Below, piece by piece: positions 1-12,740 of a stretch of DNA of 64,000 bases. Source of the DNA: Candidatus Binatia bacterium. Lineage in GTDB: Bacteria; Desulfobacterota; Binatia; HRBIN30. Positions within the stretch are counted from its first letter, which is position 1; every line of letters starts with the position of its first letter. Location: NCBI GenBank assembly GCA_038245295.1, contig JBBRSP010000016.1, positions 1 to 64,000 of the forward strand, given 5' to 3'. Both the position numbers and the translations under genes were made by a program. The notes below the pieces were generated by a model. That model worked only from the letters and a program-made list of their open reading frames with translations, searched no databases and was not told the origin of the DNA.

Positions 1-117
1 CACCTTGCCGACGCTGACGTGCAGGCTTTCAGCGATCTGGCGGTTGCGCCGGTCGCCTACCCACTTCAGGTACAGAATCTCTCGAATCTTTCGCATGGAC
101 AGTCTCTCCGTTGCCAT
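1..117 (-). CDS. istA: IS21-family transposase IstA, N-terminus (runs off the window)
   Basis: Minus-strand translation from ATG 117 gives MATERLSMRKIREILYLKWVGDRRNRQIAESLHVSVGKV, the IS21/IS408 IstA HTH N-terminus. GGAGGCGAGG RBS precedes it. Not in the ORF track because it is truncated. Confidence 0.85.
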   Translation of the reverse strand, partial: MATERLSMRKIREILYLKWVGDRRNRQIAESLHVSVGKV

Positions 118-201
118 CCTCGCCTCCCCATCTTTGATGGGTAGGGAGTAACAGCTGGGGTTGCTGTCCAGCGTCGCTGAACTTGACGGCCGACGGCTAC
201 C

Positions 202-349
202 TGATCACGATCCCGGGACCGTTGATCACGATGCCGAAACACGTGATCACGATCCCGAAATGGCTGATCACGATGCCGAAACGCTTGATCACGATGCAGC
301 GAAATCAGTGATCACGATGCCGAAACGGGTGATCACGATGGGCCGAAAC
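202..349. repeat. Seven tandem ~21-bp IS21 terminal repeats (TGATCACGATGCCGAAAC consensus)
   Basis: TGATCACGAT cores at 202, 223, 244, 265, 286, 309 and 330; period 21 bp, with one interval of 23. Confidence 0.9.
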
Positions 350-693
350 GCGCACCCCTATTCGTGATCTGGATGATTCGTGTTGGTTTTGTCGAGAGAT
401 CGGCGACGAAGATTCAAGGGATGTAGTATACCGGGGCATGTCACGAAAGCCAAGTACCTACCCGTTGGTGAAAATTCTAGCGGTGGATCAATCGACGAGG
501 CCGTTAGAGCGATGAAAACCGCCCCGAAAACATCGCTCTAAGGCAAAAAACGAGTCTGGTTTTCGATGATATGCTTATGATTACCGACACGTACCGTGGT
601 CCGACCCGTGGAAAGTGTCTTCGACGATGTGGGGCGTTGTTGGCAGTGAACCGGGGCGGGATTGTTGGTATTGGTTCAATTGGAGGGAATGGC

Positions 694-2121
694 GTGATTC
701 CAAAGGTATTCATCTCGTACAGCTGGAGTTCTCCTCGACATCAGGCACGCGTCCAGCAGTGGGTTGAGCAGCTGCTGGCCAACGGGATCGACGTTGTCTT
801 CGACGTTTACGACCTCAAGGAGGGCAACGACAAGTTCGTATTTATGGAGAGAATGGTCACTGACCCATCGGTAAGCCATGTACTAGTCCTAAGCGATCGG
901 GAGTATACGCATAAAGCCGACAGCAGACAGGCGGGCGTCGGAACCGAATCACAGATTATCTCACAGGAGGTGTACGACAAGGTTAATCAGTCGAAGTTCG
1001 TCCCGATCGTCTGCGAGGTTGACCAAGACGGCAACCCATACTTGCCAGCGTTCCTGAAGTCTCGCATCTGGATCGACTTCTCCACGCCGGAAGCCGCCAA
1101 CAGCAACTGGGAGCGGCTTGTTCGACTCCTTCACGGCCGACCTGCTCAGACGAAACCTGAGAGGAGCCAGCCGCCTGCCTATTTGCGAGATGATTCAGCC
1201 GCACCCGCCAATCCTGCGATTACGAAACTCAACGTCCTTAGGCAAGCGGTTCTTCGGAAAGACGCCCGGTTGACGTTGTATCGTAGCGATTTCTTGGAAG
1301 CGTGCTTCACCTATGCCGATGCCCTGCGGATCCGCGCGGAACCTGCAGCCTTGACATTCGGCCAAAAGGTCCTGGAGGATTGTGCGAGGCTCAAGCCAAT
1401 CCGGAACCAAATCGTCGATTGGGTGCTCCTCGAGTCCGAAGGTCAACACGCCGCCGATTTCAAAGAAGGTCTATTGGATTTTCTCGAGCGCCTGCTCGAA
1501 CTCAAATCGCGACCGGTTGAGGTCACGTCGTGGAACGATGATTGGTTCGAGGCACAATCTGTCTTCGTGTACGAAACGTTCCTCTATGTCGTCGCGGCAC
1601 TCATGAAAACTGGCGCATTCGATATTCTCCACGACGTCCTTACTTCGCATTATCTGATGCCGGAGACGGCCTCGTCTGCGAACGATCGCTTTTCAACATT
1701 TGACATCTTCTGCGGCTACTCCAAGGCTCTTCGGCTGGTTCTCGCCCCACCGGGTCAACGGCTCCACTCTCCTGCTGCGGAACTGCTGAAGCGCCAGGCG
1801 GACCGTACCGACCTGACGTTCAACTCAATCATGGAGGCTGAGCTTCTCATTCTCCTCATGTCATTGATTAGCGCTGAGGTCCGCTGGTTTCCGCAAACGC
1901 TCTACTACGCTGGATACAGCAAGGCATTCCCCTTCTTTGTTCGCGCGGCACGGCATAGGAACTTTCTGAAGATCGCTGAGGTGACCGGGTTGGCACATGC
2001 TGACGACTTGCGAGCAGCGGTCAAGGAAGGGCAGGCGCGGGTAGGGGCCAAAAACTGGCACGATTTCGCCATCAGCATCTGGAGCGCCATGAACATGGAT
2101 AATCTGGACACCCTTCGATAG
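694..2121 (+). CDS. SEFIR/TIR-domain protein, probable anti-phage defence protein
   Basis: PKVFISYSW...LLANGIDVVFDVYDLKEGND...FMERMV...YTHKADSRQAGVGTESQII is a SEFIR/TIR N-terminus with the conserved Glu, followed by a helical C-terminus. GTG 694 follows GGAGGG; the ORF track opens at 571. Confidence 0.8.
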   Translation: MIPKVFISYSWSSPRHQARVQQWVEQLLANGIDVVFDVYDLKEGNDKFVFMERMVTDPSVSHVLVLSDREYTHKADSRQAGVGTESQIISQEVYDKVNQSKFVPIVCEVDQDGNPYLPAFLKSRIWIDFSTPEAANSNWERLVRLLHGRPAQTKPERSQPPAYLRDDSAAPANPAITKLNVLRQAVLRKDARLTLYRSDFLEACFTYADALRIRAEPAALTFGQKVLEDCARLKPIRNQIVDWVLLESEGQHAADFKEGLLDFLERLLELKSRPVEVTSWNDDWFEAQSVFVYETFLYVVAALMKTGAFDILHDVLTSHYLMPETASSANDRFSTFDIFCGYSKALRLVLAPPGQRLHSPAAELLKRQADRTDLTFNSIMEAELLILLMSLISAEVRWFPQTLYYAGYSKAFPFFVRAARHRNFLKIAEVTGLAHADDLRAAVKEGQARVGAKNWHDFAISIWSAMNMDNLDTLR

Positions 2122-2384
2122 GCTCGGCGAGCCTACAGGGGCGATGAATTTGCCTTCGTGTTTCTAGCGGTCCGACGCGTCACCTTCACAAGCTTCACGT
2201 CCCCAATTCGCCGTCCCCAATTCGCCCGCCATACATCGGCGGTGAACAGAAGCGGCGCCATTCATGGGTGCGTGTCCCGCCTGCCACACCGCGGCAGCCC
2301 TGGACGATTCATCCCTCACGTCCTGGGCGTTGCGTTCGAGCAGCGCCTCGTAGGCCTCGTCCCTAGGCCTCGCCAAGCGTTGTG

Positions 2385-5300
2385 TTAACCCAATGCGGAC
2401 TGGTGGTGCTTCATTCCGCAGTCCAACGGAATCACGAAGCATTGCCCCGAAAAGTGCTTAGCGGTTACCTCGGTGACCTTAGCCGTTTCCAGGTTGAGCT
2501 CGAGACGTTGCTTGGCAGCTACTGCGCAGGTGCACTCAACGATCAAGAGATCATTCACGCCGTCCAATTGGTTCAGACCATCCAAGATATAGAAAGCTTG
2601 AGGTATGTCGTTTGGAATTTTCGTGTCCCGAAACAAAACTTCACCGCTGGGTTTTGCGATTTGTGCGACGGATCCATAGAAAAGGCCTTTCCTAGCCCCA
2701 CCGAACGCTTGTCCCTCTTGAATTAGAGTACTGCCGGCGAGCCGAATTGCACAGGCAGCGTCCCACAACACTGCGGGGTCTGCCGCCACCGCAATAAATG
2801 CGTCGTTGCCCGTGTCCTCAAACGATAGTCCCTTGTTGCTGAGTCCCGTGAGAATAGCACGGATCTGGTCCTTCATTGGATTCGTTTGGGATTGGTTGGT
2901 GCCCTTTACAATATCTAGGACAAGAATAAACATGCCGTCGCGGCGAGTCTCGGTGGAACCGTCTTCGAGTCTTCTACTGCGCCCCTCGGGCGCAAAGGGA
3001 TACTCAGTATCATCATACCGGCGGCAGAATGTGCGTAGAGCCGAGCGAAGTTCATCCAGCGCACCTTCGCACTCTTTAAGGCATGATCGAGTCCAGTTGG
3101 TCAGTTCCATGCGGCTCTTCACGGGTTTCTCACTCAATTGCTGCTTGAAGAACGATTTTCCCGGCAATTTGCCGCTGGACTGAAGCTCGTTGAATGCTTT
3201 CGCAGCATCGACCCAATCGGCGCTAATCGCCCACCCGGAATCACTGTCTCCCCTATGCAGCGTTAAGCCTTGCGGAGCGAATGCATCTCGCAAGTCTTGC
3301 TCAGTGCACCAACCGGCTTCTCTCAGAATCGCTATCAGGAAGGTCGTCAGATTGGCCATCTGACTAAGAAGCGGAGTTAAAATCTGGAATCGTGCATCTA
3401 GTCCAGGATCTCGCGAAGGATCCAGTGTAAGTCTAGACTTTGCGAATTTCCACCAACGCAACGCTGGCTTTCCTTGCACTGCGAAGGCGTCGTCTGCACT
3501 CTTTATCAAGCGCGCATAGTCGCGATAGAAGACCCGGTATTTCTTCCGCGCTTCAGTGATGAATTGAATCGACCAGTAGAGCATTGTCGCGATATTCTCC
3601 CTTTCTGTAGGTTCTGGAACAGAAAGGTTTTTCGTAAGACTCAAAACTCCGAAAAAGGATCGCTCTTCGTAACCGCTCCACGCGTGAAGTTCGAATGCAA
3701 ATGCGTTGAACGCCCGACGATGATTGCCGCAACTTGAAAGGACCAGCTTTACTTCGGAGGGCACCTCAACAAAGGACTGAGCCAAGAACTCGAAGCCGTC
3801 GAAAAAATCTCTCTCAAGCCCAGGTGGCCAAGTCAGCTTTACGGGTGAAACAAACTTTTTGCGCGGAACTATAGTCCGCCGACCGCGCTCCAACACCTCC
3901 TCGAACGGTGCGTACTTGCCGTTGGTCATCCAAGCGGAAGACTTGCGACCACCTATCTCACCGGTACTTACATATCCAAATTTCTCTGGACCATTCGTGA
4001 GTGGCAATGACGGGAAAATGTCCCTCAGGACGACGCACAACTTGTGCGCATCGAAAGGCGTGAGGCTTCGACGCCGACGGTTCGAAAGATAGGCTCGATA
4101 CGCTTGATTCAGCGCAAGTTTGAGTTCAAGGGTCGGCTGATCCTCTTCGTCTTCCCCACAGTAGAAAGTACGACACCACGATTGGTTCTCAAACGTGATT
4201 TTTGGCACGGCCAGAGCTCGATCCACCAACATGTCTACTGTGAGACTTACTTGCGCTGGTTCAACGTCAACGCCGAAACCGCCCGCAAGAATGCTTTTAA
4301 TCGCTTCGAAATTGAGACCCACCCCCAGTCGTTCTGAACTGGTATCTTCGCTGCGTTTTTCCGATGAATCTGTAACATGTCTAAGCGCGAGAAAGACGCG
4401 TCCGATCGATTCCCACGGGGGGTCCTCAGAATCAGGGGTATAGGCAGGTTCGCGAGTTAAGAACTCGGTAATTTCAGCTTGTAGTCTCGGATTATTGCCA
4501 ACCTCGGGTGCCTGATTCGCCTCCGGCATATCGGGTGAACCACCAATCGTACCCTCGGCGAATAGTTGTTTGAGGATATCAGCGTTTTCACTGCCAAGAA
4601 CGAATCGCATATCTTCCAAGAGAAACTCGGCTTTAGTGACAGTATATCGAGGAGCCAGGGCATTTCTGCAATTCCGGACAACCGATTGCGCAGCAATCGT
4701 AGAGAGAAAGGCGGTGGCTAGTCGAAACACCGAACGAACAAATTCGCTGGGGGCATGGGCGTTCGGTTGATGCAACCTCAGCCAGGCCGCCTGTAAGGCC
4801 GGGTTCGAAAATACTATGGCCGAGGGATCACTACTACTTGACAGAGATAGCTGGACGATCGGGGTTAAGAAAAGCGCGGACTCCGAAGGTTGTATAATGA
4901 ACCGTACCTTTGAGTAGGGCCGAACCGCCAAGCCAGATCTGTTGTCGGCGACGTTTCCCCAATGCTGGATGAAAGCGGAGCCGCGGAATATCCCCCGGGC
5001 AGTCGACTCCGGCCAAGATATCAAATGCAGTGGCAACAAATCTGGGACGCGGCCTAGGCTTTCAACGACATCGTGAAATGTGTCCGGGTTCAGGCCATCA
5101 ATCCCGAGCCTGATCGTCGGGAAATCCAAATTGTGATGAAGCGTCGAGCCAAGAACGCCCTGTACTAAGTCGGCATGATGGCGTTGGATCGAGTCAGGCC
5201 ACAATTTTTGATAGTATTGTACAGGCAGGGACGAGTGTGGAGATGGCGTTCGCTTGGGATGTTCAGGAAGGGATTCTCCCAAAAAAGTCTCACGGTCGAC

Positions 5301-5603
5301 CACGTATGAAGCACACCGCGAAATTACGCCGCGCGATCTGAGACTTTCGACAACTGCAGAGAGAGTGGATCCAAAGATGACAGAGTCATCGAATACCACG
5401 ACTGGTCTCTCGCTAAGGACGTCAGGGTCGACAAATGGCACGGCGTGTTGAGAAATGAACGTGATGCCGGCCTTCGTCGTCTGCTTACGCAGCTGCAGGA
5501 AACGAATCGCACCGCGGGCGACTGCAACGACTGTGTTTGCATTGGCGTCATCGATGACACCCTGGAACCACTCGTCAAATTGCGCTGGATAATGGTCGGC
5601 CAT
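2385..5603 (-). CDS. Large protein: N-terminal phosphoribosyltransferase-like domain, wHTH-like middle, C-terminal class III nucleotidyl-cyclase-like domain
   Basis: VAVARGA and VVVFDDSVIFGST are type I PRTase loops. The C-terminus has FILVLDIVKGT...TGNDAFIAV...RKGLFYGSV (cyclase-like). Start taken at ATG 5603; the ORF track opens at 5654. Confidence 0.65.
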   Translation of the reverse strand: MADHYPAQFDEWFQGVIDDANANTVVAVARGAIRFLQLRKQTTKAGITFISQHAVPFVDPDVLSERPVVVFDDSVIFGSTLSAVVESLRSRGVISRCASYVVDRETFLGESLPEHPKRTPSPHSSLPVQYYQKLWPDSIQRHHADLVQGVLGSTLHHNLDFPTIRLGIDGLNPDTFHDVVESLGRVPDLLPLHLISWPESTARGIFRGSAFIQHWGNVADNRSGLAVRPYSKVRFIIQPSESALFLTPIVQLSLSSSSDPSAIVFSNPALQAAWLRLHQPNAHAPSEFVRSVFRLATAFLSTIAAQSVVRNCRNALAPRYTVTKAEFLLEDMRFVLGSENADILKQLFAEGTIGGSPDMPEANQAPEVGNNPRLQAEITEFLTREPAYTPDSEDPPWESIGRVFLALRHVTDSSEKRSEDTSSERLGVGLNFEAIKSILAGGFGVDVEPAQVSLTVDMLVDRALAVPKITFENQSWCRTFYCGEDEEDQPTLELKLALNQAYRAYLSNRRRRSLTPFDAHKLCVVLRDIFPSLPLTNGPEKFGYVSTGEIGGRKSSAWMTNGKYAPFEEVLERGRRTIVPRKKFVSPVKLTWPPGLERDFFDGFEFLAQSFVEVPSEVKLVLSSCGNHRRAFNAFAFELHAWSGYEERSFFGVLSLTKNLSVPEPTERENIATMLYWSIQFITEARKKYRVFYRDYARLIKSADDAFAVQGKPALRWWKFAKSRLTLDPSRDPGLDARFQILTPLLSQMANLTTFLIAILREAGWCTEQDLRDAFAPQGLTLHRGDSDSGWAISADWVDAAKAFNELQSSGKLPGKSFFKQQLSEKPVKSRMELTNWTRSCLKECEGALDELRSALRTFCRRYDDTEYPFAPEGRSRRLEDGSTETRRDGMFILVLDIVKGTNQSQTNPMKDQIRAILTGLSNKGLSFEDTGNDAFIAVAADPAVLWDAACAIRLAGSTLIQEGQAFGGARKGLFYGSVAQIAKPSGEVLFRDTKIPNDIPQAFYILDGLNQLDGVNDLLIVECTCAVAAKQRLELNLETAKVTEVTAKHFSGQCFVIPLDCGMKHHQSALG

Positions 5604-5708
5604 GAGCCCCCGTTGGCACACAACTTGACATCGAGCGGGTAAGAATTCAAGCACTCTGGAGACGGGGCTTCGCCGACCCTCCCACCCCTTCGGCGGGGGA
5701 AGGAATTG

Positions 5709-5767
5709 GGGACGTAGAGGTTATTCGGACGATTGTCCGAGAATCGTCCGAATAACCTCTACGTCCC
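5709..5767. repeat. Perfect 26-bp inverted repeat with a 7-nt loop (REP/REPIN-like hairpin)
   Basis: GGGACGTAGAGGTTATTCGGACGATT (5709-5734) is the exact reverse complement of 5742-5767. It overlaps the hsdM stop codon. Confidence 0.9.
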
Positions 5768-7285
5768 TTTTCCAGGCGCCGCCATCCCGCCTCGGCGTGC
5801 CTGCAGATCGCCGAGCACGTCCTCGATTTGCGCCAGCGCGGCGCGTAGGTCTTCAGCGATCTCTTCGGCGAGAACGTCAGGATCGGGTAGGTTCGCCGAG
5901 TCTTCGAGGCTCTCGTCGCGCAGCCAGAACAGATCGAGGCTCACCTTGTCGCGCGCCAGCAGGTCTTCGTAGCTGTACGAGCGCCAGCGCCCTTCGGGGT
6001 GCTTCTCGGTCCACTTCGGCTTGCGCTTCTGCAGTTCGCCGGGGCGGTAGCATTCGACGAACTCGTCGAGGTCGGTGCGCTTGATGGTGCTCTGCTTCAG
6101 TGTGTGGTGCACATTGGTGCGGTAGTCGTAGACCCACAGTTCCTTCGTCCACGGCTTTTCGCTGGCCGGCTTGCGGTTGAAGAAGAGCACGTTGGCCTTC
6201 ACACCCTGGGCGTAGAAGATGCCGGTCGGCAGGCGTAGCAGGGTGTGCACGTCGCAGTCATTCAGCAGTCGCTTGCGGATCTTCTCACCGGCACCGCCTT
6301 CGAAGAGCACGTTGTCGGGCACGACGACTGCCGCGCGTCCGTTTATCTTCAGCAGGTTGACGACATGCTGAAGGAAGTTGAGCTGCTTGTTGGATGTCGT
6401 CGTCCAGAAGTCGGGGCGGTTGTAGGTGAGAGTCTGGCGGTCCTCGTCGCCCTCGGCGTTGATCACCGTGATGCTCGACTTCTTACCGAACGGCGGGTTG
6501 GTCAACACAACGTCGAAGTGCTCGGCAGGCTCACTGCGCAGAGCGTCATCGGTCTTGAGCGGCGGTGGCGTGTGGTCGTCGGTTGGACCGATGCCGTGCA
6601 GGAACAGATTCATCGCGCATAGGCGCGTGACGCTATCGACGAGCTCCACACCGCGCAGGGCGTCGTACCGAAGGTGGTGCTTCTGATCGCGGTCGAGGTC
6701 GTAGTGCTGCGCGACGTATTGGTGGGCGGACAACAAGAACCCGCCCGTGCCACACGCCGGATCGCAGATCTTCTCGTGCGGGTCTGGACGAATGCAATCG
6801 ACAATGCCGTCGATGAGTGGACGCGGCGTAAAGTACTGCCCCGCCCCGCTCTTCGTATCCTCGGCATTCTTGGCGAGGAGCCCTTCGTAGGCGTCGCCCT
6901 TTACGTCGACGGACATCGCCGACCAGTTCTCCTGCCCGATCAGCTCAACGATCAGACGCCGGAGCTTCGCGGGGTCCTGGATGCGGTTCTGCGCTTTGCG
7001 GAAGATCAGCCCGAGCATGCCGCCCTCGGCGCCCAGGGCCTGGAGGACCTGCCGATACTTGCCTTCGAGCCGCTCACCCTCCATCTGTGGATCCGCAAGA
7101 TCAGACCAGCGGCATCCTTTCGGAATGGGCTGCTCCTCGCCACTAAGCGCGGCACGCTCTTCCACCATCTTCAGAAACAACAGACAGGTGAGCTGTTCGA
7201 GGTAGTCGAGATAGGAGAGGCCATCGTCGCGCAGGACGCTGCAATAACTCCACAGCTTCTGGACGATGCGACTGGAATCGCTCAT
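5759..7285 (-). CDS. hsdM: Type I R-M N6-adenine methyltransferase subunit
   Basis: IVQKLWSYCSVLRDDG, GQYFTPR, DPACGTGGFL (motif I), NPPF (motif IV). The ATGA overlap with the hsdS stop sets the start at 7285. Confidence 0.95.
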   Translation of the reverse strand: MSDSSRIVQKLWSYCSVLRDDGLSYLDYLEQLTCLLFLKMVEERAALSGEEQPIPKGCRWSDLADPQMEGERLEGKYRQVLQALGAEGGMLGLIFRKAQNRIQDPAKLRRLIVELIGQENWSAMSVDVKGDAYEGLLAKNAEDTKSGAGQYFTPRPLIDGIVDCIRPDPHEKICDPACGTGGFLLSAHQYVAQHYDLDRDQKHHLRYDALRGVELVDSVTRLCAMNLFLHGIGPTDDHTPPPLKTDDALRSEPAEHFDVVLTNPPFGKKSSITVINAEGDEDRQTLTYNRPDFWTTTSNKQLNFLQHVVNLLKINGRAAVVVPDNVLFEGGAGEKIRKRLLNDCDVHTLLRLPTGIFYAQGVKANVLFFNRKPASEKPWTKELWVYDYRTNVHHTLKQSTIKRTDLDEFVECYRPGELQKRKPKWTEKHPEGRWRSYSYEDLLARDKVSLDLFWLRDESLEDSANLPDPDVLAEEIAEDLRAALAQIEDVLGDLQARRGGMAAPGKGT

Positions 7286-8766
7286 GCGGCCTTCTTCCTC
7301 TTCGAACGAGACTCGCCGCTCTTCGGAGCAGCCGCCTTCGCGCTCTCGCGTTCGGCCCGGATGCGTTCCAGTAGGATCGCCGCGGGTTCGTCGTTCGGGT
7401 CTTGATCGACAAGCTTCCCCTCGAATGCCCATTTCAAGATGCTCTGGCGTAGGCGATCGCATCGGGATTGCTCGCTTGTCAGAACTTTTTCAACCTTGTC
7501 GATGATTGAAGTGCAGGAATCGACGTGAGCGACAATCCGAGACTGCTCGGCTGCGGGCGGGAGCGCGACAATGATCTTGATCATCCGGGTAAGCCCGAGA
7601 TCTTGATTGCCTACACCGTGAGTAAATCGCTGTGCCTGTACGTAGCAAGGAGGTGAGTTTAACGCGTGCTGAACGTAAACCGGCATGACGGACTCAACCA
7701 GCTTGAGCACCGCCACGTGCACCCATACGCTGAATTCCCGGTCGTAGGTGTTGGCGCGCGCGATCCCAGTGGTCCCGCCCTTCGTGTACAGGATATCTCC
7801 CTTTTCAGGTTTGCATCGCCTCGACAGCTCGGCATGCACCTCCGGTGCGATCCTTTTTGCGTTCGCAAAATCTACGCCGTCAGGTCGAACATTTCCTCCT
7901 GTGACGATGGGAATTCCATCCTCGCTGTACTTCGGGCTGTAGTGCGGGCCGTCCTTGACTGACCACGCGAGCTGCCCGACACTCACCCAACACCACCCGT
8001 CCGGGAGCTCCGATAGCTCCATCGTGTCTGGCTCAGCTGATTCCTTGTACTTCGCTTTCCACTTGTCGTCCTTCGGCGGCTTACCCTTCGCCTTCATCGC
8101 GGCGAGCTCGGCCTCCTCCCAGCGACGGCGACGCTCGGCAAGGATGCGCTTCAACAGCTCGGACGCAGGCTCGTAGTCCCGCCCCTCCTGCCGCGCCAGC
8201 TCCGCCTCGGTGGGCACCAACCGTCCTTCGACGGCGGCTTTGAGCACAGAAGCGCGGTACCGCTTGAGGTTCGCTTGCACGCGCTCCAGCGCGGCGACGG
8301 CGGCATCGAGACGAGGGAGTTGGGTCTCGATAGCTTCTACAACGCGCGATTGTTCGGCAAGCGGTGCAATTGGAAAACGGAGCTTCCGCAGTATCGAGAA
8401 GTGGCGTGCGTACCCGCGATTTGGGACTTCCGCCGACTTTAGTGCCCAGTATGCGTACTTGGGCTCGACGCCCACTCTCGACGACAGCACCTTGACACCG
8501 TCAGCTCCCTGAATGAACGGGTACGGGCTGAACTTCACATTCCGCGTGTGGTCTCCGAAGATTACAACGGGAAGCGGGCTCGGATGGACGAGAGACTGGT
8601 CATCCGAGTACCCTCCAACCTCCGCCTCTCCTTGATCGATTACTGGAAAGCGCCCCGAATCTTTGTACTTCCTCTCCGCAAGTTTCAGATCGGAGGTGAC
8701 GTTTTCGAAGACTTGATCAAACTCCGCACTCGTCCATGAGGCTGGGAGAGATTGCATCGCCTTCAT
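7282..8766 (-). CDS. hsdS: Type I R-M specificity subunit
   Basis: Two TRDs, each followed by a conserved PLAEQSRVV/PPAAEQSRIV helix; ASVLKAAVEGRL and QSILKWAFEGKL repeats; TAATG overlap with hsdR. Confidence 0.93.
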   Translation of the reverse strand: MKAMQSLPASWTSAEFDQVFENVTSDLKLAERKYKDSGRFPVIDQGEAEVGGYSDDQSLVHPSPLPVVIFGDHTRNVKFSPYPFIQGADGVKVLSSRVGVEPKYAYWALKSAEVPNRGYARHFSILRKLRFPIAPLAEQSRVVEAIETQLPRLDAAVAALERVQANLKRYRASVLKAAVEGRLVPTEAELARQEGRDYEPASELLKRILAERRRRWEEAELAAMKAKGKPPKDDKWKAKYKESAEPDTMELSELPDGWCWVSVGQLAWSVKDGPHYSPKYSEDGIPIVTGGNVRPDGVDFANAKRIAPEVHAELSRRCKPEKGDILYTKGGTTGIARANTYDREFSVWVHVAVLKLVESVMPVYVQHALNSPPCYVQAQRFTHGVGNQDLGLTRMIKIIVALPPAAEQSRIVAHVDSCTSIIDKVEKVLTSEQSRCDRLRQSILKWAFEGKLVDQDPNDEPAAILLERIRAERESAKAAAPKSGESRSKRKKAA

Positions 8767-11636
8767 TACGCTGCCAGCACTTCGTTTAGTTCGCGCAACA
8801 CCTTACCCAAGTCTCCCCCGAACACTTGTCGGGCTTTCCCTAGCCCACCCTCGGCAGAGAATGGTGTGTAGTCGAGATCATCGAAGCCGATCTCCAAACT
8901 GGTTGCGACGTGGTCGCGCATCATCTCCAGCCAGCGACGCTGCTGGTCGGTGAACTTCCGTCCTTCGTTCTCTTGTTGCGCCATCCAGTTGTCGAATCGC
9001 TCCCGTACTTGATCGGGGAACGGCTTCAGCTCGTTCTCTCGGTGCAAGGCGAAGCGAACGAGAGAGACCATGTCCGTGACCAGGCGTTCGCCCGACGTTT
9101 GCCGCACGCGGTCCTTCTCAACGACCTCGTAGGCTCGCCACAGTTTTTCCGGGGTCCACTGGCGCGGCGGTAGTTTGATCGCAGCAACCAGATCCTTGAT
9201 GTCTTTGAAGCCCAGGCGTCGTCCCGGCGGCTGGTTGTACAGGAACTGGAGCGCGTCGATTTCGTCCTTGTTCTCATCGATGAACTTCTCGAACGACTCG
9301 ATCAAGCCCTTCGCTTTTGTCTTCGCTTCCTCAGAACTGCCCGCGTCCAGGAGTACGTCGGTGCTGATGTCGTCGATGATCTGCTCAAACTTCGTCTTCA
9401 ACTCGATCAGCAGCTTGCGCAGCTTCGGATTCGTCGCCAGCGGCGCGACCGCCGCCTTGCAGAGCTTCTCGGCGACCTGTTTGAGCTGTCCCTCTGTCGG
9501 GTCGGCGTCCTCGGGGATGCTGAACTCCGCCCGGGCGATCTCCTCCTGCTTCTCCGGCGCGATTGCCTTCAAGATGTCTTGCGTGATCGCCCCGAGAGTT
9601 TTTCCTGCGGATGATTGGAGGATTTGCTTGTGCTCGTCGCCTCCGCACTGGCGTTCAAGGCGGGCCAGACGGCTTGCAAGGGATGACAGGTAGTCTTCGT
9701 TGGTGCCGCCCGACGCGACATGCTCCAGCAGGGTCTTGAACCCGACACTCTTGTTGCGCTCCAGCGGCGTTGCCTCGGTCTTTTCCTGCGTACACACGCC
9801 GACGCAGTCGACGATCACGAAGCGGTCCTTGGTGGAGGCGTCCGGCGTGACGGCACGCAGCTCGTTGTTGTCGATAACGCGCACGCCGCGCCCCTTCATC
9901 TGGTCGAACAGCAGGCGACTCTGCACCATGCGCATGAACATGACGATCTCGATGGGCTTGATGTCGGTACCGGTGGCAATCATGTCGACGGTTACGGCAA
10001 TGCGCGGCCAAAAGCTGGTGCGGAAATCCTGAATGAGCTGGCGCGGGTCGGCTCCGGTGGTCTTGTACGTGATCTTCTGGGCGAACTGGTCGCCCCGGCC
10101 GAACTCGTCGCGCACGATCTCGACGATGTCCTCGGCGTGGCTGTCGTCCTTCGCGAAGATCAGCGTCTTCGGCACCTCGGTCCTGCCCGGGAAGATTTCG
10201 GTGAAGAGTCGCTCCTTGAAGGTTCGGACAATCGTTCGGATCTGATCCTTCGCAACCACGTTGTGATCGAGATCGCCCGCCGCGTAGGTGTAATCCTGGT
10301 CGGGCTTCTCCCAGCGCACCTGCCGCGTTGCCTTGTCACGGTGGCCCAAGACAATACCTTCGTCGGCAACCACCGTCGCACCGCTCTTGGTGATCTGGGT
10401 GACGATGTTGTAGACGTCGAAGTCGACGTTGACGCCATCGGCGACGGCTTGCTCGTGCCCGTACTCCATGACGAGGTTCTTGTTGAAGAACCCAAAGGTA
10501 TGTTTCGCGGGTGTCGCGGTCAGGCCGATCAGGAAGGCATCGAAGTACTCCACGACCTCGCGCCATAGGGAGTATATGCTGCGGTGGCACTCGTCGATCC
10601 AGACAACGTCGAAGAACTCCGGCGGGATCGTCGAATTGTAGGTCACGTGAACAGGACGCGCTGGAGACATGACGCCTGTCTCGTAGGCGGAATGCTCTTC
10701 CAGGTCCGGGTCCAGCTCGGGCTCGCCGGACAGCATCGAAAACAGCCGTTGAATGGTAGTGATCACCACCTTCGCCGAATCGCCGATCGTGTTCGAGGTG
10801 AGCCGCTGCACGTTGTAGAGCTCGGTGAACTTGCGATTGACGTCGGGAGCAACGAAGCCTTGGAACTCCTTCTCGGCCTGCTCGCCCAGGTTGGCGCGAT
10901 CGACAAGGAAGAGCACCCGACGCGCGCCGCCGTACTTGATGAGGCGGTACGCCGAGGTGATCGCCAGCTTGGTCTTGCCGCTGCCCGTCGCCATCTGAAT
11001 CAAGGCGCGCGGTTTGTTTTCGTAGAGCGAGCGTTCCAGTCGCTCGATGGCCTCGACCTTATTCTGCCACAGCCCCGGAAGAACAACCTCGGGCATCGCA
11101 CGCAGGCGCGACCGGAATGTGGCCGGACGCTTCATGTCGAGCTTGCGAGCTTCCAACTCGGTGGCCGTGCGCCAGCCGCCAACCCAGTCTGCAAGCGGCT
11201 GCTGCTGGAGCCACTCGGCGACCGTCTCTGGTCGATGGAACGAGACCACGCGGCGACTGCGCGGATCGGGATCAAGATCATTCAAGAAGAGCGTTTCGGT
11301 TCCGGTGCTGGAGTACAGGAAGGGAAGCGGACGGATCGGCGGTGACAGCTCGTCCGGTAGCCCCTCCGAGTACTTCTTCGCCTGCACCTGAACCCCGGAG
11401 AGCGTGTACCCGGCAGGCTTCGCCTCGACGACACCGACGGGGCGCTCGTCGACGAAGAGCAGGTAGTCCGCGAAGCCGTGCTCACTCTTCATCTTGAACT
11501 CGCGCACAGCGACGCCGCGCCGCGCCGCAAGGTTCATGTCGGCGCGGTCCTGCACCTCCCATCCAGCAGCGTCGAGCGCCGCGTCGATCAGCAGACGCGC
11601 CTTGGCTTCAGGATCTGGGCCTTTTGAGGGAGACAT
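8766..11636 (-). CDS. hsdR: Type I R-M restriction subunit (EcoEI/EcoAI-like C-terminus)
   Basis: ADYLLFVD..VVEAK nuclease motif, ATGSGKT Walker A, DECH, LTATP, QMKGRG. Start is uncertain (11636-11657). Confidence 0.93.
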   Translation of the reverse strand: MSPSKGPDPEAKARLLIDAALDAAGWEVQDRADMNLAARRGVAVREFKMKSEHGFADYLLFVDERPVGVVEAKPAGYTLSGVQVQAKKYSEGLPDELSPPIRPLPFLYSSTGTETLFLNDLDPDPRSRRVVSFHRPETVAEWLQQQPLADWVGGWRTATELEARKLDMKRPATFRSRLRAMPEVVLPGLWQNKVEAIERLERSLYENKPRALIQMATGSGKTKLAITSAYRLIKYGGARRVLFLVDRANLGEQAEKEFQGFVAPDVNRKFTELYNVQRLTSNTIGDSAKVVITTIQRLFSMLSGEPELDPDLEEHSAYETGVMSPARPVHVTYNSTIPPEFFDVVWIDECHRSIYSLWREVVEYFDAFLIGLTATPAKHTFGFFNKNLVMEYGHEQAVADGVNVDFDVYNIVTQITKSGATVVADEGIVLGHRDKATRQVRWEKPDQDYTYAAGDLDHNVVAKDQIRTIVRTFKERLFTEIFPGRTEVPKTLIFAKDDSHAEDIVEIVRDEFGRGDQFAQKITYKTTGADPRQLIQDFRTSFWPRIAVTVDMIATGTDIKPIEIVMFMRMVQSRLLFDQMKGRGVRVIDNNELRAVTPDASTKDRFVIVDCVGVCTQEKTEATPLERNKSVGFKTLLEHVASGGTNEDYLSSLASRLARLERQCGGDEHKQILQSSAGKTLGAITQDILKAIAPEKQEEIARAEFSIPEDADPTEGQLKQVAEKLCKAAVAPLATNPKLRKLLIELKTKFEQIIDDISTDVLLDAGSSEEAKTKAKGLIESFEKFIDENKDEIDALQFLYNQPPGRRLGFKDIKDLVAAIKLPPRQWTPEKLWRAYEVVEKDRVRQTSGERLVTDMVSLVRFALHRENELKPFPDQVRERFDNWMAQQENEGRKFTDQQRRWLEMMRDHVATSLEIGFDDLDYTPFSAEGGLGKARQVFGGDLGKVLRELNEVLAA

Positions 11637-12123
11637 CGAACGGTGTGTATGCGGCAAACTTCAACGGGGGTCAAATTGTTCGGTGGCGAAGAAGCGGGGG
11701 CTGGGAAGCAGGCGGGTGTGCGGGGTCGGACCACGGCAACCTGCGGGAATGGTTCAGATCTGAGCCCGCATCGGCCTCGTCTTTCACTTTAGCGTGAGGT
11801 TTCCGGGGCGGATTTCGTGGCTCGAACGAGGCGAGACCGCCTTGAGGAGGCGGTTGCCGATTGTCGTACCACCCCAAAGCGGTTTTGCGGTTAGCGCTTG
11901 GGGACGGTTGACGGGTTAGCAACGACTCGCCGAGGTGATGCGTGACGCACACCTCACGCTGCAACTCGGCGAGCGAATGAGGACGTTTGCCTCAAATGTG
12001 CGCGAGCGTAAAGTACTGCCCGTAGCCCGAGGCTGCAAAGTGGGGGGGGCCCTTTAGCTGCCCTAGTCTTGATCAGCCTCAGGTCGGGTTGAGGTGGGAT
12101 GACGAGTCGGATACTTTGTAGGA

Positions 12124-12387
12124 ATGCAGGGTAAGACAAAGGTTTCGATCACCGTCCGTACGCGGTTGCTCAAAGAGGTTGAACGCGTCGCGGGGGACAC
12201 GAGCCGCAGTGCGATCTTTGATCAAGCTCTTGCTCACTGGCTGCAAGAACGACGACAAGGGCAACTCGAGCAAGACATCGAGAGCTACTACCGGTCTCTG
12301 AGTGCCGGGGAGAACGCCGAAGATGAGACATGGGCACAGGGCGGTGACGACACGGTGAACCGGGTTTGGAGCGAGCCCAAGCGGTGA
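12124..12387 (+). CDS. Ribbon-helix-helix antitoxin (MazE-like)
   Basis: KTKVSITV..LLKEVER...SRSAIFDQAL RHH pattern, acidic C-terminus, GTGA overlap with the toxin. Confidence 0.8.
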   Translation: MQGKTKVSITVRTRLLKEVERVAGDTSRSAIFDQALAHWLQERRQGQLEQDIESYYRSLSAGENAEDETWAQGGDDTVNRVWSEPKR

Positions 12388-12740
12388 CAGGAGAAGATCT
12401 CTACCCTCGTCGTGCCCACATCTATTGGGTCAAGGTCCCCGACGAGCCCGGCGGTAAGCGCCGACCCGCGTTGGTAGTGTCCCCTGACGTTCGGAACCGC
12501 TTGGCCAGTGACGTGATTGTTGTCCCCATCTCGAGCGTGCTGCGCGAGGCGCCGACGCACGTTCGTCTGCGTTCGCGAGAAGGTGGGCTCGCACGTCCAT
12601 CAGTAGCCAAATGCGAACAGATCACGACACTGCGTCGCGACCGATTGCTGCCGCGGCCGCTAAGCGGTGCCCTATCGGCTGCGCGTATGATCGAGGTGGA
12701 AAAGGCGATCCTGCGAGCCATCGGTGTTCCGATCCATTGA
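12384..12740 (+). CDS. mazF: MazF/PemK-family endoribonuclease toxin
   Basis: RAHIYWV...GKRRPALVVSPDVRN...VIVVPIS...CEQITTL. Confidence 0.9.
   Translation: MTGEDLYPRRAHIYWVKVPDEPGGKRRPALVVSPDVRNRLASDVIVVPISSVLREAPTHVRLRSREGGLARPSVAKCEQITTLRRDRLLPRPLSGALSAARMIEVEKAILRAIGVPIH

Follow-up and report, generated by a model that had tools for sequence, protein, structure and literature searches.

What does a protein that joins a type I PRTase to a class III nucleotidyl-cyclase fold do for a bacterium that carries it among defence genes? The question is raised by one gene in the 64,000-nt stretch of DNA analysed here (the window), and it was put by an earlier note, which read the gene from its sequence as a candidate nucleotide-signalling immune protein.

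Gene and local context

The gene and its surroundings are as follows.

571..2121, plus strand: bSEFIR defence gene, convergent with the P0001 gene (Pfam SEFIR/TIR_2; PADLOC bSEFIR, E 9.8e-91)
2190..2222, unstranded: two copies of the upstream REP-like repeat, inverted relative to it, downstream of the P0001 gene (repeat pairing)
2385..5603, minus strand: P0001 gene, with PRTase, alpha/beta, wHTH, wHTH-like, helical-bundle and class III cyclase-fold domains (AF2 model, VIA)
5703..5767, unstranded: REP-like repeat plus a 29-bp near-perfect hairpin, upstream of the P0001 gene (repeat comparison)
5759..11657, minus strand: type I R-M operon hsdR, hsdS, hsdM, co-directional with and upstream of the P0001 gene (profile matches)

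The ORF of about 1070 aa described in the earlier note is real: P0001 has 1072 aa and is encoded at 2385-5603 on the minus strand, with an ATG at 5603 and a stop ending at 2385. There is a GTG in frame 17 codons upstream, and the N-termini of homologues favour the ATG. Profile matches to bSEFIR and to hsdR/S/M bear out its reported place between a SEFIR/TIR gene and a type I R-M system, and the lower GC content that had been noticed is also borne out, at 52.5% (GC3 55%) for the gene versus 63.0% for positions 13001-64000 of the window. The end of hsdM and the ATG are 155 nt apart. A functional tie to bSEFIR or to the type I R-M system was rejected because homologues of neither recur beside relatives of P0001. 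The repeats on both sides of the gene, which we take to be REP-like, include an upstream copy with related copies on four other contigs; no such flanks were found beside P0001 relatives. A consensus promoter scan for the gene returned nothing.

Domain architecture

P0001 matched 0 families in a profile search of each of Pfam, PADLOC and NCBIfam, and a PDB sequence search gave weak PRTase matches only (best E 0.02, profile). BFVD yielded only single-domain cyclase or PRTase rows, and ESM Atlas held nothing at ≥0.9 (0.79 for the whole protein; 0.82 for aa 1-590). The AF2 model is confident (pLDDT 92.1, pTM 0.89) and divides the chain into six parts.

5154..5603, minus strand: type I PRTase domain, aa 1-150 (VIA fold match and conserved loops)
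4548..5141, minus strand: alpha/beta plus helical domain, aa 155-352 (weak COR/KA1-like rows only, Z about 6)
4140..4490, minus strand: winged helix 1, aa 372-488 (VIA Z 6-7.2 to Crp/NsrR/PadR-type wHTHs)
3828..4139, minus strand: second winged-helix-like domain, aa 489-592 (secondary-structure pattern; weak rows, Z 5.7-5.8)
2994..3827, minus strand: long helical bundle, aa 593-870, joining the core to the C-terminal module (DSSP)
2415..2963, minus strand: class III nucleotidyl-cyclase fold, aa 881-1063 (fold match, residue counts)

Residues 1-150 are predicted to fold as a type I PRTase with a PPi loop (A29-R30-G31-A32-x-R34) and an acidic PRPP loop (D72-D73-S74-x-I76-x-G78-S79-T80); in the AF2 model, VIA aligns residues 1-146 with HPRT 5esw at Z 11.1 and an rmsd of 2.9 over 129. 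Several of the HPRT alignments run on into residues 461-498, where R478, Y481, G483 and E484 may cap the PRTase site. The earlier note thus had the fold and both loops right, but it had set VAVARGA within 5360-5405; the motif is residues 26-32 (5508-5528), and VVVFDDSVIFGST is residues 68-80 (5364-5402). R30, D72, D73, S74, G78 and S79 are kept in all 31 close relatives, R30, R34, D72, D73 and G78 are invariant in 27 diverse family members, and the Pribosyltran profile scores above its cut-off in the relatives P0042 and P0127.

The domain at aa 155-352, in which K232 and R234 are invariant, had no Foldseek match at E≤0.001 and only weak COR/KA1-like rows in VIA (Z about 6), and ShosT and retron structures were missing among the matches listed. 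The proposed wHTH-like segment is supported by VIA matches at about 391-492, whose Z of 6-7 is middling; winged helices over this same stretch make up most of the 50 rows, and R425, D457, D461, P467, R478, G483 and E484 are invariant in this domain. Several relatives of 590-640 aa terminate at the end of the second winged-helix-like domain, and comparison of the two domains detected no duplication. Matches of the helical bundle are non-specific four-helix bundles (Z 9.5-10.4).

Cyclase fold and altered active site

The C-terminal domain is predicted to adopt a class III cyclase fold, as the earlier note had proposed, on the agreement of AF2, Foldseek and VIA. Residues 885-1063 of the model superpose on Rv1900c (1ybt) at Z 17.1, with an rmsd of 2.5 Å and 155 residues aligned, and Foldseek returned 38 matches at E≤0.001, all cyclases among the matches listed. 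The hallmarks that had been named are present, namely D897 in LDIVKGT, D934 in GNDA, and RKGLFYG, which holds R971; what had been overlooked is that the alpha-4 Asn/Arg pair is not conserved in this subfamily. Class III cyclases use this transition-state Asn and Arg on alpha-4, according to the available text of PMC4886424. Both are replaced in P0001, by P1001 and Y1005; among the 31 close relatives, P1001 occurs in 29 and position 1005 is S, Y or G. The catalytic Arg is kept only in the distant clade (8/8 aligned members).

The metal aspartates and the phosphate-binding Arg/Lys are retained in the P0001 subfamily. D897 and D934 are each found in 30/31 close relatives, with Glu in each exception, while R971, K972 and D993 occur in all 31 and K1049 and H1050 in 30; the site of P0001 also contains E929. 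N/H998 (24/31), K972 and H1050 may stand in for the alpha-4 pair. The residue register comes from sequence alignment, and because hhalign matched the near-clade cyclase only weakly with 14 genome cyclases (E 0.018), motifs and the distant clade form part of its basis.

A homodimer model of the cyclase domain is symmetric and scores 0.92 versus 0.00 for the best of 3 controls, although this score may reflect known structures because class III dimers have been solved many times. The mark for such scores is attained by 20 of the 30 solved pairs, and by one single chain of 23. At least 94% of the contacts are common to its runs, with pLDDT ≥93, and residues 998 and 1050 contact the partner's P-loop in the model.

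Distribution and tail variants of the family

The family is rare and patchy. Among the matches listed, none from 400 other genomes of the phylum was full-length, and searches of plasmids, phages and IMG/VR gave no match. A count of 143 of 401 phylum genomes as carriers was discarded: among the matches listed, P0001 itself excepted, only the PRTase stretch of other PRTases was covered (profile positions about 26-148). The fusion is common to 41 of the 49 relatives of 1000+ aa. In a tree of 60 protein cores, the cyclase occurs in both main clades, so the fusion is old, and it has been lost, decayed or replaced at no fewer than four separate places. The residues of the PPi and PRPP loops and of winged helix 1 do not vary among 27 diverse members, a set that includes six without the C-terminal half. 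The PRTase/wHTH core is constant, while members of the wider family can do without the cyclase.

Several outcomes are seen at the C-terminus. A decayed cyclase fold is followed by a TIR domain in P0046 and P0051 (TIR_2 E 6e-22 in P0051) and stands without any other tail in P0042 and P0044, whereas P0137 and P0140 carry a dCMP deaminase plus EAD7 tail. At three independent loci (L004, L012/L014 and L022), a tail-less form is followed downstream by a conserved membrane-protein gene. By-eye assignments of an NDT-like tail in P0127 and a nitrilase-like tail in P0137 were dropped, as Pfam, NCBIfam and PDB did not support them. Two further relatives have HTH-like tails: P0122, with a weak ArlR match (E 0.43), and P0047, judged by eye.

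Defence-gene neighbourhoods

The family is enriched near defence genes, in line with the expectation of the earlier note. At PADLOC E≤1e-30, 18 of 129 neighbour ORFs of relatives matched versus 9 of 281 control ORFs, and a defence gene was present at 7/10 long loci versus 1/16 control windows (Fisher p 0.0013), with a rough control that may understate the defence background because its windows came from long contigs of one phylum. Two of the seven positive loci depend on a single weak gene each: a lone MTase at L007, and a PIN-type gene about 9 kb away at L026. The remaining three long loci (L005, L008, L016) have no defence neighbour; these and L003 have mostly housekeeping neighbours, and recombinases or integrases are present at L004, L007 and L012.

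A cNMP-binding domain was absent from 120 neighbour ORFs and from the scanned neighbours in the window, many loci having short flanks. The same 120 ORFs contained no RVT match, and L002-L027 contained no RT motif. Cyclase-bearing members lacked a conserved partner gene, and a conserved metabolic partner was likewise absent.

Comparison with known systems

The claim that no described system joins a PRTase to a cyclase held: PADLOC gave no match for P0001 and only weak PRTase-loop matches for 27 members, and this architecture is undescribed in the literature searched. With a C-terminus that models as a class III cyclase and homologues enriched near defence genes, none of the three outcomes named in the earlier note as refutations was seen. 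The closest parallel is the retron III-A3 effector (Retron-Eco11; Pfam PRTase-CE group), which, in the accessible parts of PMC12746101, is a PRTase plus wHTH that depletes PRPP, sharing with P0001 an N-terminal type I PRTase with a winged helix, an HPRT/XGPRT-like fold and an anti-phage context. P0001 is about 1070 rather than about 400 aa long, with additional alpha/beta, second wHTH-like, helical and cyclase domains; no RT adjoins it or its relatives among the neighbours scanned, and the retron Gx14PNNxP motif is in none of the family proteins examined. PRTase-CE and PRTase_III-A match a few relatives, weakly (PRTase-CE below its cut-off, best E 4e-4).

ShosT and OpnC are also defence PRTases with a DD-type PRPP loop; the portions available describe loss of toxicity in a ShosT DD mutant (PMC11961720) and a need for OpnC in Ophion defence (10.1101/2025.09.30.679545). 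Joined to the ShosT PRTase is another enzyme that handles nucleotides, a PPase according to these portions, where P0001 has a cyclase fold. Their domain order and partner domains differ from those of P0001, and no DprA-like antitoxin, rSAM or PHP gene recurs as a conserved partner beside its relatives. Seven of 27 family members match ShosT weakly (best E 5.5e-4); otherwise only weak PRTase_III-A matches were found, at the PRTase loops.

The Pycsar/Pucsar cyclases PycC and PucC share the class III fold (Z 13.5 against 7r65, 14.2 against 8jsz) and the two metal Asp, but Rv1900c and ordinary AC/GCs, at Z 16-17, resemble the P0001 fold more closely than PycC does. Unlike these enzymes, it is fused to an 870-aa PRTase-wHTH body, and the alpha-4 Arg is missing in its subfamily. 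E929 is reminiscent of E118, which reads guanine in PucC according to the accessible part of 10.64898/2026.08.12.744502; their equivalence is presumed from an alignment offset by one residue. Pycsar models in PADLOC matched neither P0001 nor any of 27 family members, and no CNBD-TIR or CNBD-TM effector gene lies nearby; with no cNMP-receptor gene among the neighbour ORFs scanned, P0001 is not Pycsar. VMAP/vWA-MoxR ternary conflict systems (Kaur et al. 2020; PMC7159879, as far as its text was available) share a constant core with interchangeable cNMP-cyclase and TIR-fold modules, inactive cyclases and EAD7. The P0001 family has a PRTase core and lacks MoxR, vWA and VMAP, and "PRTase" and "phosphoribosyl" do not occur in the available main text of that paper.

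Proposed function

P0001 probably belongs to the anti-phage (conflict) proteins that spread horizontally, usually as a single gene, and represents a candidate new one-gene defence family, as the defence-rich neighbourhoods, patchy spread and low GC3 suggest. PurR-type regulators are likewise laid out as PRTase plus wHTH, and this layout, together with the housekeeping neighbours at four loci, the recombinases or integrases at three and the HTH-like tails, would suit a metabolic enzyme, or a regulator responsive to nucleotides, that senses through its PRTase, binds DNA through its wHTH, puts out cNMP and is carried into islands by mobile elements. We consider this improbable given the defence enrichment, the TIR, deaminase and EAD7 tails, the very patchy spread and the missing metabolic partner.

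We assign a probability of roughly 0.4 to our preferred reading, which likens the PRTase-wHTH core to the PRTases of retron III-A3 and ShosT: it would act as an abortive effector by using up PRPP, under the control of an exchangeable nucleotide module at the C-terminus. We infer that effector activity lies in the PRTase-alpha/beta-wHTH core, which on release would consume PRPP or phosphoribosylate an unusual acceptor, stalling nucleotide metabolism (abortive infection). The cyclase fold would be a swappable control module: it would hold two chains together as a dimer and take up metal-NTP where they meet, with or without release of cNMP; the bound nucleotide would be a purine, with G slightly favoured by E929. 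Its nucleotide state would travel through the helical bundle to the core, and phage DNA or protein would most likely be sensed by the winged helices. The invariant PRTase and wHTH1 residues, kept even in the six members without a C-terminal half, and the repeated loss, decay or replacement of the cyclase argue for this arrangement, as do the need for the PRTase in Eco11, ShosT and OpnC defence and the interchange of cNMP cyclases with TIR-fold domains in VMAP systems, both according to the partial texts cited above (PMC7159879 for the latter). Against it, the single PRTase-CE protein compared aligned to the core at the PRPP loop only, the retron PNNxP motif is missing, and the cyclase site is so strongly selected in the near clade that it may be more than a switch. 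Nor can a conserved PRPP loop tell an enzyme from a ligand sensor of the PyrR/PurR type.

The roles could be reversed, which we regard as possible but rather less probable: the PRTase-wHTH would only bind PRPP, ppGpp, a nucleotide (as PyrR and PurR do) or phage DNA and switch on a C-terminal killer, be it the cyclase (by NTP drain or cNMP), a TIR NADase, a deaminase or the neighbouring membrane protein. The TIR_2 and dCMP deaminase plus EAD7 tails fit this equally well, both being classic effectors, and so do the tail-less variants beside a membrane protein at three independent loci and the conserved cyclase pocket with its catalytic Arg in the distant clade. It sits less easily with P0042 and P0044, whose cyclase fold has decayed with no other tail in its place, with the loss of the Asn/Arg pair in the near clade and with the known defence PRTases Eco11, ShosT and OpnC, which the available portions of their sources present as effectors or required enzymes. 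The earlier note had suggested that the protein builds an unusual nucleotide from PRPP and cyclises it. The two active-site folds do occur together in 41/49 long relatives, their fusion is old, and an uncommon substrate might lie behind the unusual E929/D993/K972/H1050 set; yet class III cyclases take NTPs and the PRTase product is an NMP, so host kinases would have to supply two phosphorylation steps between the domains before a cyclic signal could reach a separate effector. With the PRTase intact where the cyclase is lost, no cNMP-binding protein in the 120 neighbour ORFs and no conserved partner for cyclase-bearing members, this suggestion did not hold up well and is the least probable of those considered. 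The other suggestion of the earlier note, that the protein senses a nucleotide, may yet hold.

It is also conceivable, if doubtful, that an entire second-messenger immune circuit resides in one polypeptide: the winged helices would detect phage, and a rebuilt cyclase, with Lys972/His1050 for Asn/Arg, would make cGMP or a non-canonical nucleotide, to which a PRTase effector under a wHTH "hood" would respond in cis. Were this true, TIR and deaminase tails would take the cyclase's place in making the signal for the same PRTase receiver, and PRTase folds would form a new class of nucleotide receptor in immunity.

The PRTase defence enzymes described recently, Eco11, ShosT and OpnC, all depend on partner genes, and the class III cyclases known from immunity make a signal as free-standing proteins, a separate one receiving it. 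Here, a one-gene family wires a PRTase to a cyclase, and its variants drop, split off or replace the cyclase, forming a ready-made dissection series. The family makes testable both the reception of nucleotide signals by PRTase folds and the working of a class III cyclase without the canonical Asn/Arg.

Predicted folds and conserved sites

The P0001 reading frame extends on the minus strand from an ATG at 5603 to a stop ending at 2385 and encodes 1072 aa. Profile searches with Pfam, PADLOC and NCBIfam gave zero matches at E<=1; the PADLOC check suggested in the earlier note left the architecture unmatched. Every motif named in that note was found in P0001, with VAVARGA at 5508-5528, outside the range given there, and the DD loop at 5364-5402. 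AlphaFold2, given an alignment of 61 rows, produced a confident model (pLDDT 92.1, pTM 0.89). Against 48,161 solved chains, the model's top 23 rows are class III cyclases over residues about 881-1063 (best 1ybt, Rv1900c; Z 17.1, rmsd 2.5 Å, 155 aligned), and the next are type I PRTases over residues 1-150 (5esw; Z 11.1, rmsd 2.9, 129 aligned). Both folds had been proposed from the sequence and are borne out here, the cyclase by further structure comparisons as well. Modelled separately, residues 150-590 match winged helices over about 391-492 (Z 6-7.2), in agreement with the proposed wHTH-like segment, and give weak rows only for 155-352.

Across 27 diverse members, R30, R34, D72, D73, G78, R234, R425, D461, P467, G483 and E484 are invariant, and the PRTase loops and first wHTH are therefore the constant part of the family. 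In the cyclase domain of 31 close relatives, R971, K972 and D993 occur in all, D897, D934, K1049 and H1050 in 30 each, and E929 in 24. The alpha-4 Asn/Arg, described in PMC4886424 as stabilising the transition state of class III cyclases, are replaced in close relatives by Pro1001 (29/31) and Ser/Tyr/Gly at 1005, in a register set from sequence motifs; the distant clade retains the Arg in 8/8. In profile alignment with 14 ordinary cyclases that the host genome encodes, the near clade matches weakly (E 0.018) and the distant clade better (E 7e-6). Modelled as a symmetric dimer, the domain scored 0.92 against 0.00 for the best of three controls, which may reflect memory of solved cyclase dimers; the score mark is reached by 20/30 solved pairs and 1/23 single chains. 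This model (contact agreement at least 94%, pLDDT at least 93) predicts that residues 998, 1001 and 1050 contact the partner's 902-903 loop. We read the domain as a selected, possibly rebuilt metal-NTP site whose catalysis is uncertain. By analogy with PucC E118, the comparison residue for guanine reading in 10.64898/2026.08.12.744502, E929 hints at guanine. The host genome has ordinary class III cyclase matches at 18 places (L028-L042), and a cNMP made by P0001 could therefore reach host receptors in trans.

Genomic context

As the earlier note described, the gene lies between a bSEFIR gene, convergent with it, and a type I R-M operon that runs in the same direction (Pfam, PADLOC), in DNA of lower GC: 52.5% for the gene versus 63.0% for window positions 13001-64000, and GC3 of 55% versus about 80% for hsdM/hsdR.

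Features around the P0001 gene in the window
1-347: contig opening, in a minus-strand frame resembling an IS21-family transposase N-terminus, with the tandem repeats of the next line
199-347: 21-nt tandem repeats, five or more copies, preceding that frame
2190-2222 and 5703-5767: REP-like repeats flanking the gene as inverted copies
12366-12740: PemK/MazF-like toxin gene just past hsdR, the far edge of the island

Repeats related to the 199-347 array also occur on contigs C67 and C10, and at the contig start the assembly was probably broken by the end of an IS. The core motif of the flanking REP-like repeats has about 10 copies in the genome, one beside a RAYT-like frame on contig C34; these repeats are absent from the relatives' loci compared.

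The proposed neighbourhood enrichment was assessed in 22 of 26 loci, excluding P0001's own locus and four duplicates (L014, L018, L020, L023). These 22 loci supplied 129 ORFs no shorter than 120 aa. PADLOC matched 18 of these ORFs at E<=1e-30, or 15 without three generic matches. The control set held 343 ORFs in 20 arbitrary 20-kb windows, from long contigs of one phylum; the scan covered 281 of these ORFs, from 16 complete windows and part of one more, and nine matched, four being Csm genes of one window and the others generic or RecD. Fisher p was 1e-4 for all matches and 2e-5 for the curated ones, with ORFs within a locus not independent. By locus, a defence gene is present in 7/10 loci whose flanks span 8 kb or more versus 1/16 control windows (p 0.0013), two of the seven resting on a single weak gene each; L005, L008 and L016 have no defence neighbour. 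The neighbours vary by locus: type I R-M/DrmD, Old with PbeAC, SoFic/DruA, BglII R-M with AbiEi, TIR-TM and HNH. Comparison of the relatives' loci revealed no conserved partner gene for cyclase-bearing members, and 120 neighbours included no cNMP-binding or RT domain.

Family variation

A complete HMMER search returned 138 representatives at E<=0.001. Of the 49 proteins compared that reach 1000 aa or more, 41 have the cyclase and its aspartates (31 close, 2 intermediate, 8 distant); the other eight deviate in the tail.

Tail variants
P0042, P0044: decayed cyclase-like region
P0046: decayed cyclase-like region and TIR
P0047: decayed cyclase-like region and HTH-like tail, by eye
P0122: OmpR-like HTH tail, weak match
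P0127: tail of no assigned family
P0137, P0140: deaminase-EAD7 tail
P0051, in addition to these eight: N-terminally partial; TIR at the C-terminal end (E 6e-22)

In a quickly computed, midpoint-rooted tree based on 60 sequences of the core, the cyclase occurs in both main clades and is lost or swapped in at least four places. Forms of 919-950 aa at L004, L012/L014 and L022 terminate past the helical bundle. In every case the next gene encodes a probable membrane protein of 270-310 aa, homologous between the loci (35-55% identity, hydrophobic ends by eye). This unannotated, probable two-TM family, a candidate partner or effector, lies directly downstream of cyclase-less variants only.

Probable two-TM genes
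L004:3491-4429
L012:4484-5299
L022:3250-4149

Six relatives of 590-640 aa stop past the second wHTH-like domain, and two family proteins begin at the helical bundle. Pairing by equal-sized contigs suggests that P0083 with P0136 and P0099 with P0106 are two-gene forms; in one such pair, P0129 with P0153, nothing else differs from the fused P0152, and at least one of the splits is therefore a simple break. The hosts that carry a name come from Syntrophales, Planctomycetota, Victivallales, Pyrinomonadaceae, Thermodesulfovibrionales and Chitinophagales. Searches of 400 further genomes from the host's phylum, and of plasmid, phage and IMG/VR sets, gave no match over the full length.

A variant at L013:3057-5306 and L026:9446-11486 has an N-terminal barstar domain (E 3e-23) and an internal loss that takes out the two wHTHs and the greater part of the bundle, so that PRTase-alpha/beta-cyclase remains; the variant may be either natural or an assembly artefact. 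At L008:9926-11428, a remnant gene keeps only the N-terminal PRTase and C-terminal cyclase parts, which do not share a frame, and a PyrE-like PRTase gene comes next. A PRTase-CE protein at L093 (contig C4 of another genome, G027), related to this family in the PRPP loop only, precedes sequence that looks NADAR-like and DNA-methylase-like by eye.

Proposed function

The analysis establishes the folds, the conserved residues, the modular nature of the tail, the single-gene arrangement and the defence-rich surroundings. We infer that the family acts in defence or conflict, with a probability of about 0.8; a regulator outside defence is improbable. Within defence, we tentatively favour an arrangement in which the PRTase-wHTH core would act as the effector and the C-terminal tail would exert nucleotide-dependent control, because the core is constant and the defence PRTases compared are effectors or required enzymes (PMC12746101, PMC11961720, 10.1101/2025.09.30.679545). 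PMC7159879 describes cyclase and TIR-fold domains that replace one another as signal modules.

The earlier note had envisaged a serial pathway, the PRTase product then being cyclised, which would require missing kinase steps and a receptor, and we give it little credence. The mirror arrangement, with the core as sensor and the tail as killer, comes close behind the core as effector, though we consider it rather unlikely; it likens the core to ligand sensors or regulators of the PyrR/PurR kind.

The family belongs neither to Pycsar nor to the retron effectors or ShosTA. As the earlier note had supposed, no PRTase-class III cyclase fusion is described in the literature searched; the search was mostly without subscription papers, and absence from print is unproven. 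It included PMC13092281, PMC13712802, PMC12191111 and 10.64898/2025.12.03.692087. In the text of the immune cNMP cyclase survey 10.64898/2026.08.12.744502, "PRTase" and "phosphoribosyl" are absent; its Figure 1A and Table S1 could show the architecture. The family is real, rare and apparently undescribed, and would work most like a defence PRTase carrying a built-in, exchangeable nucleotide module.
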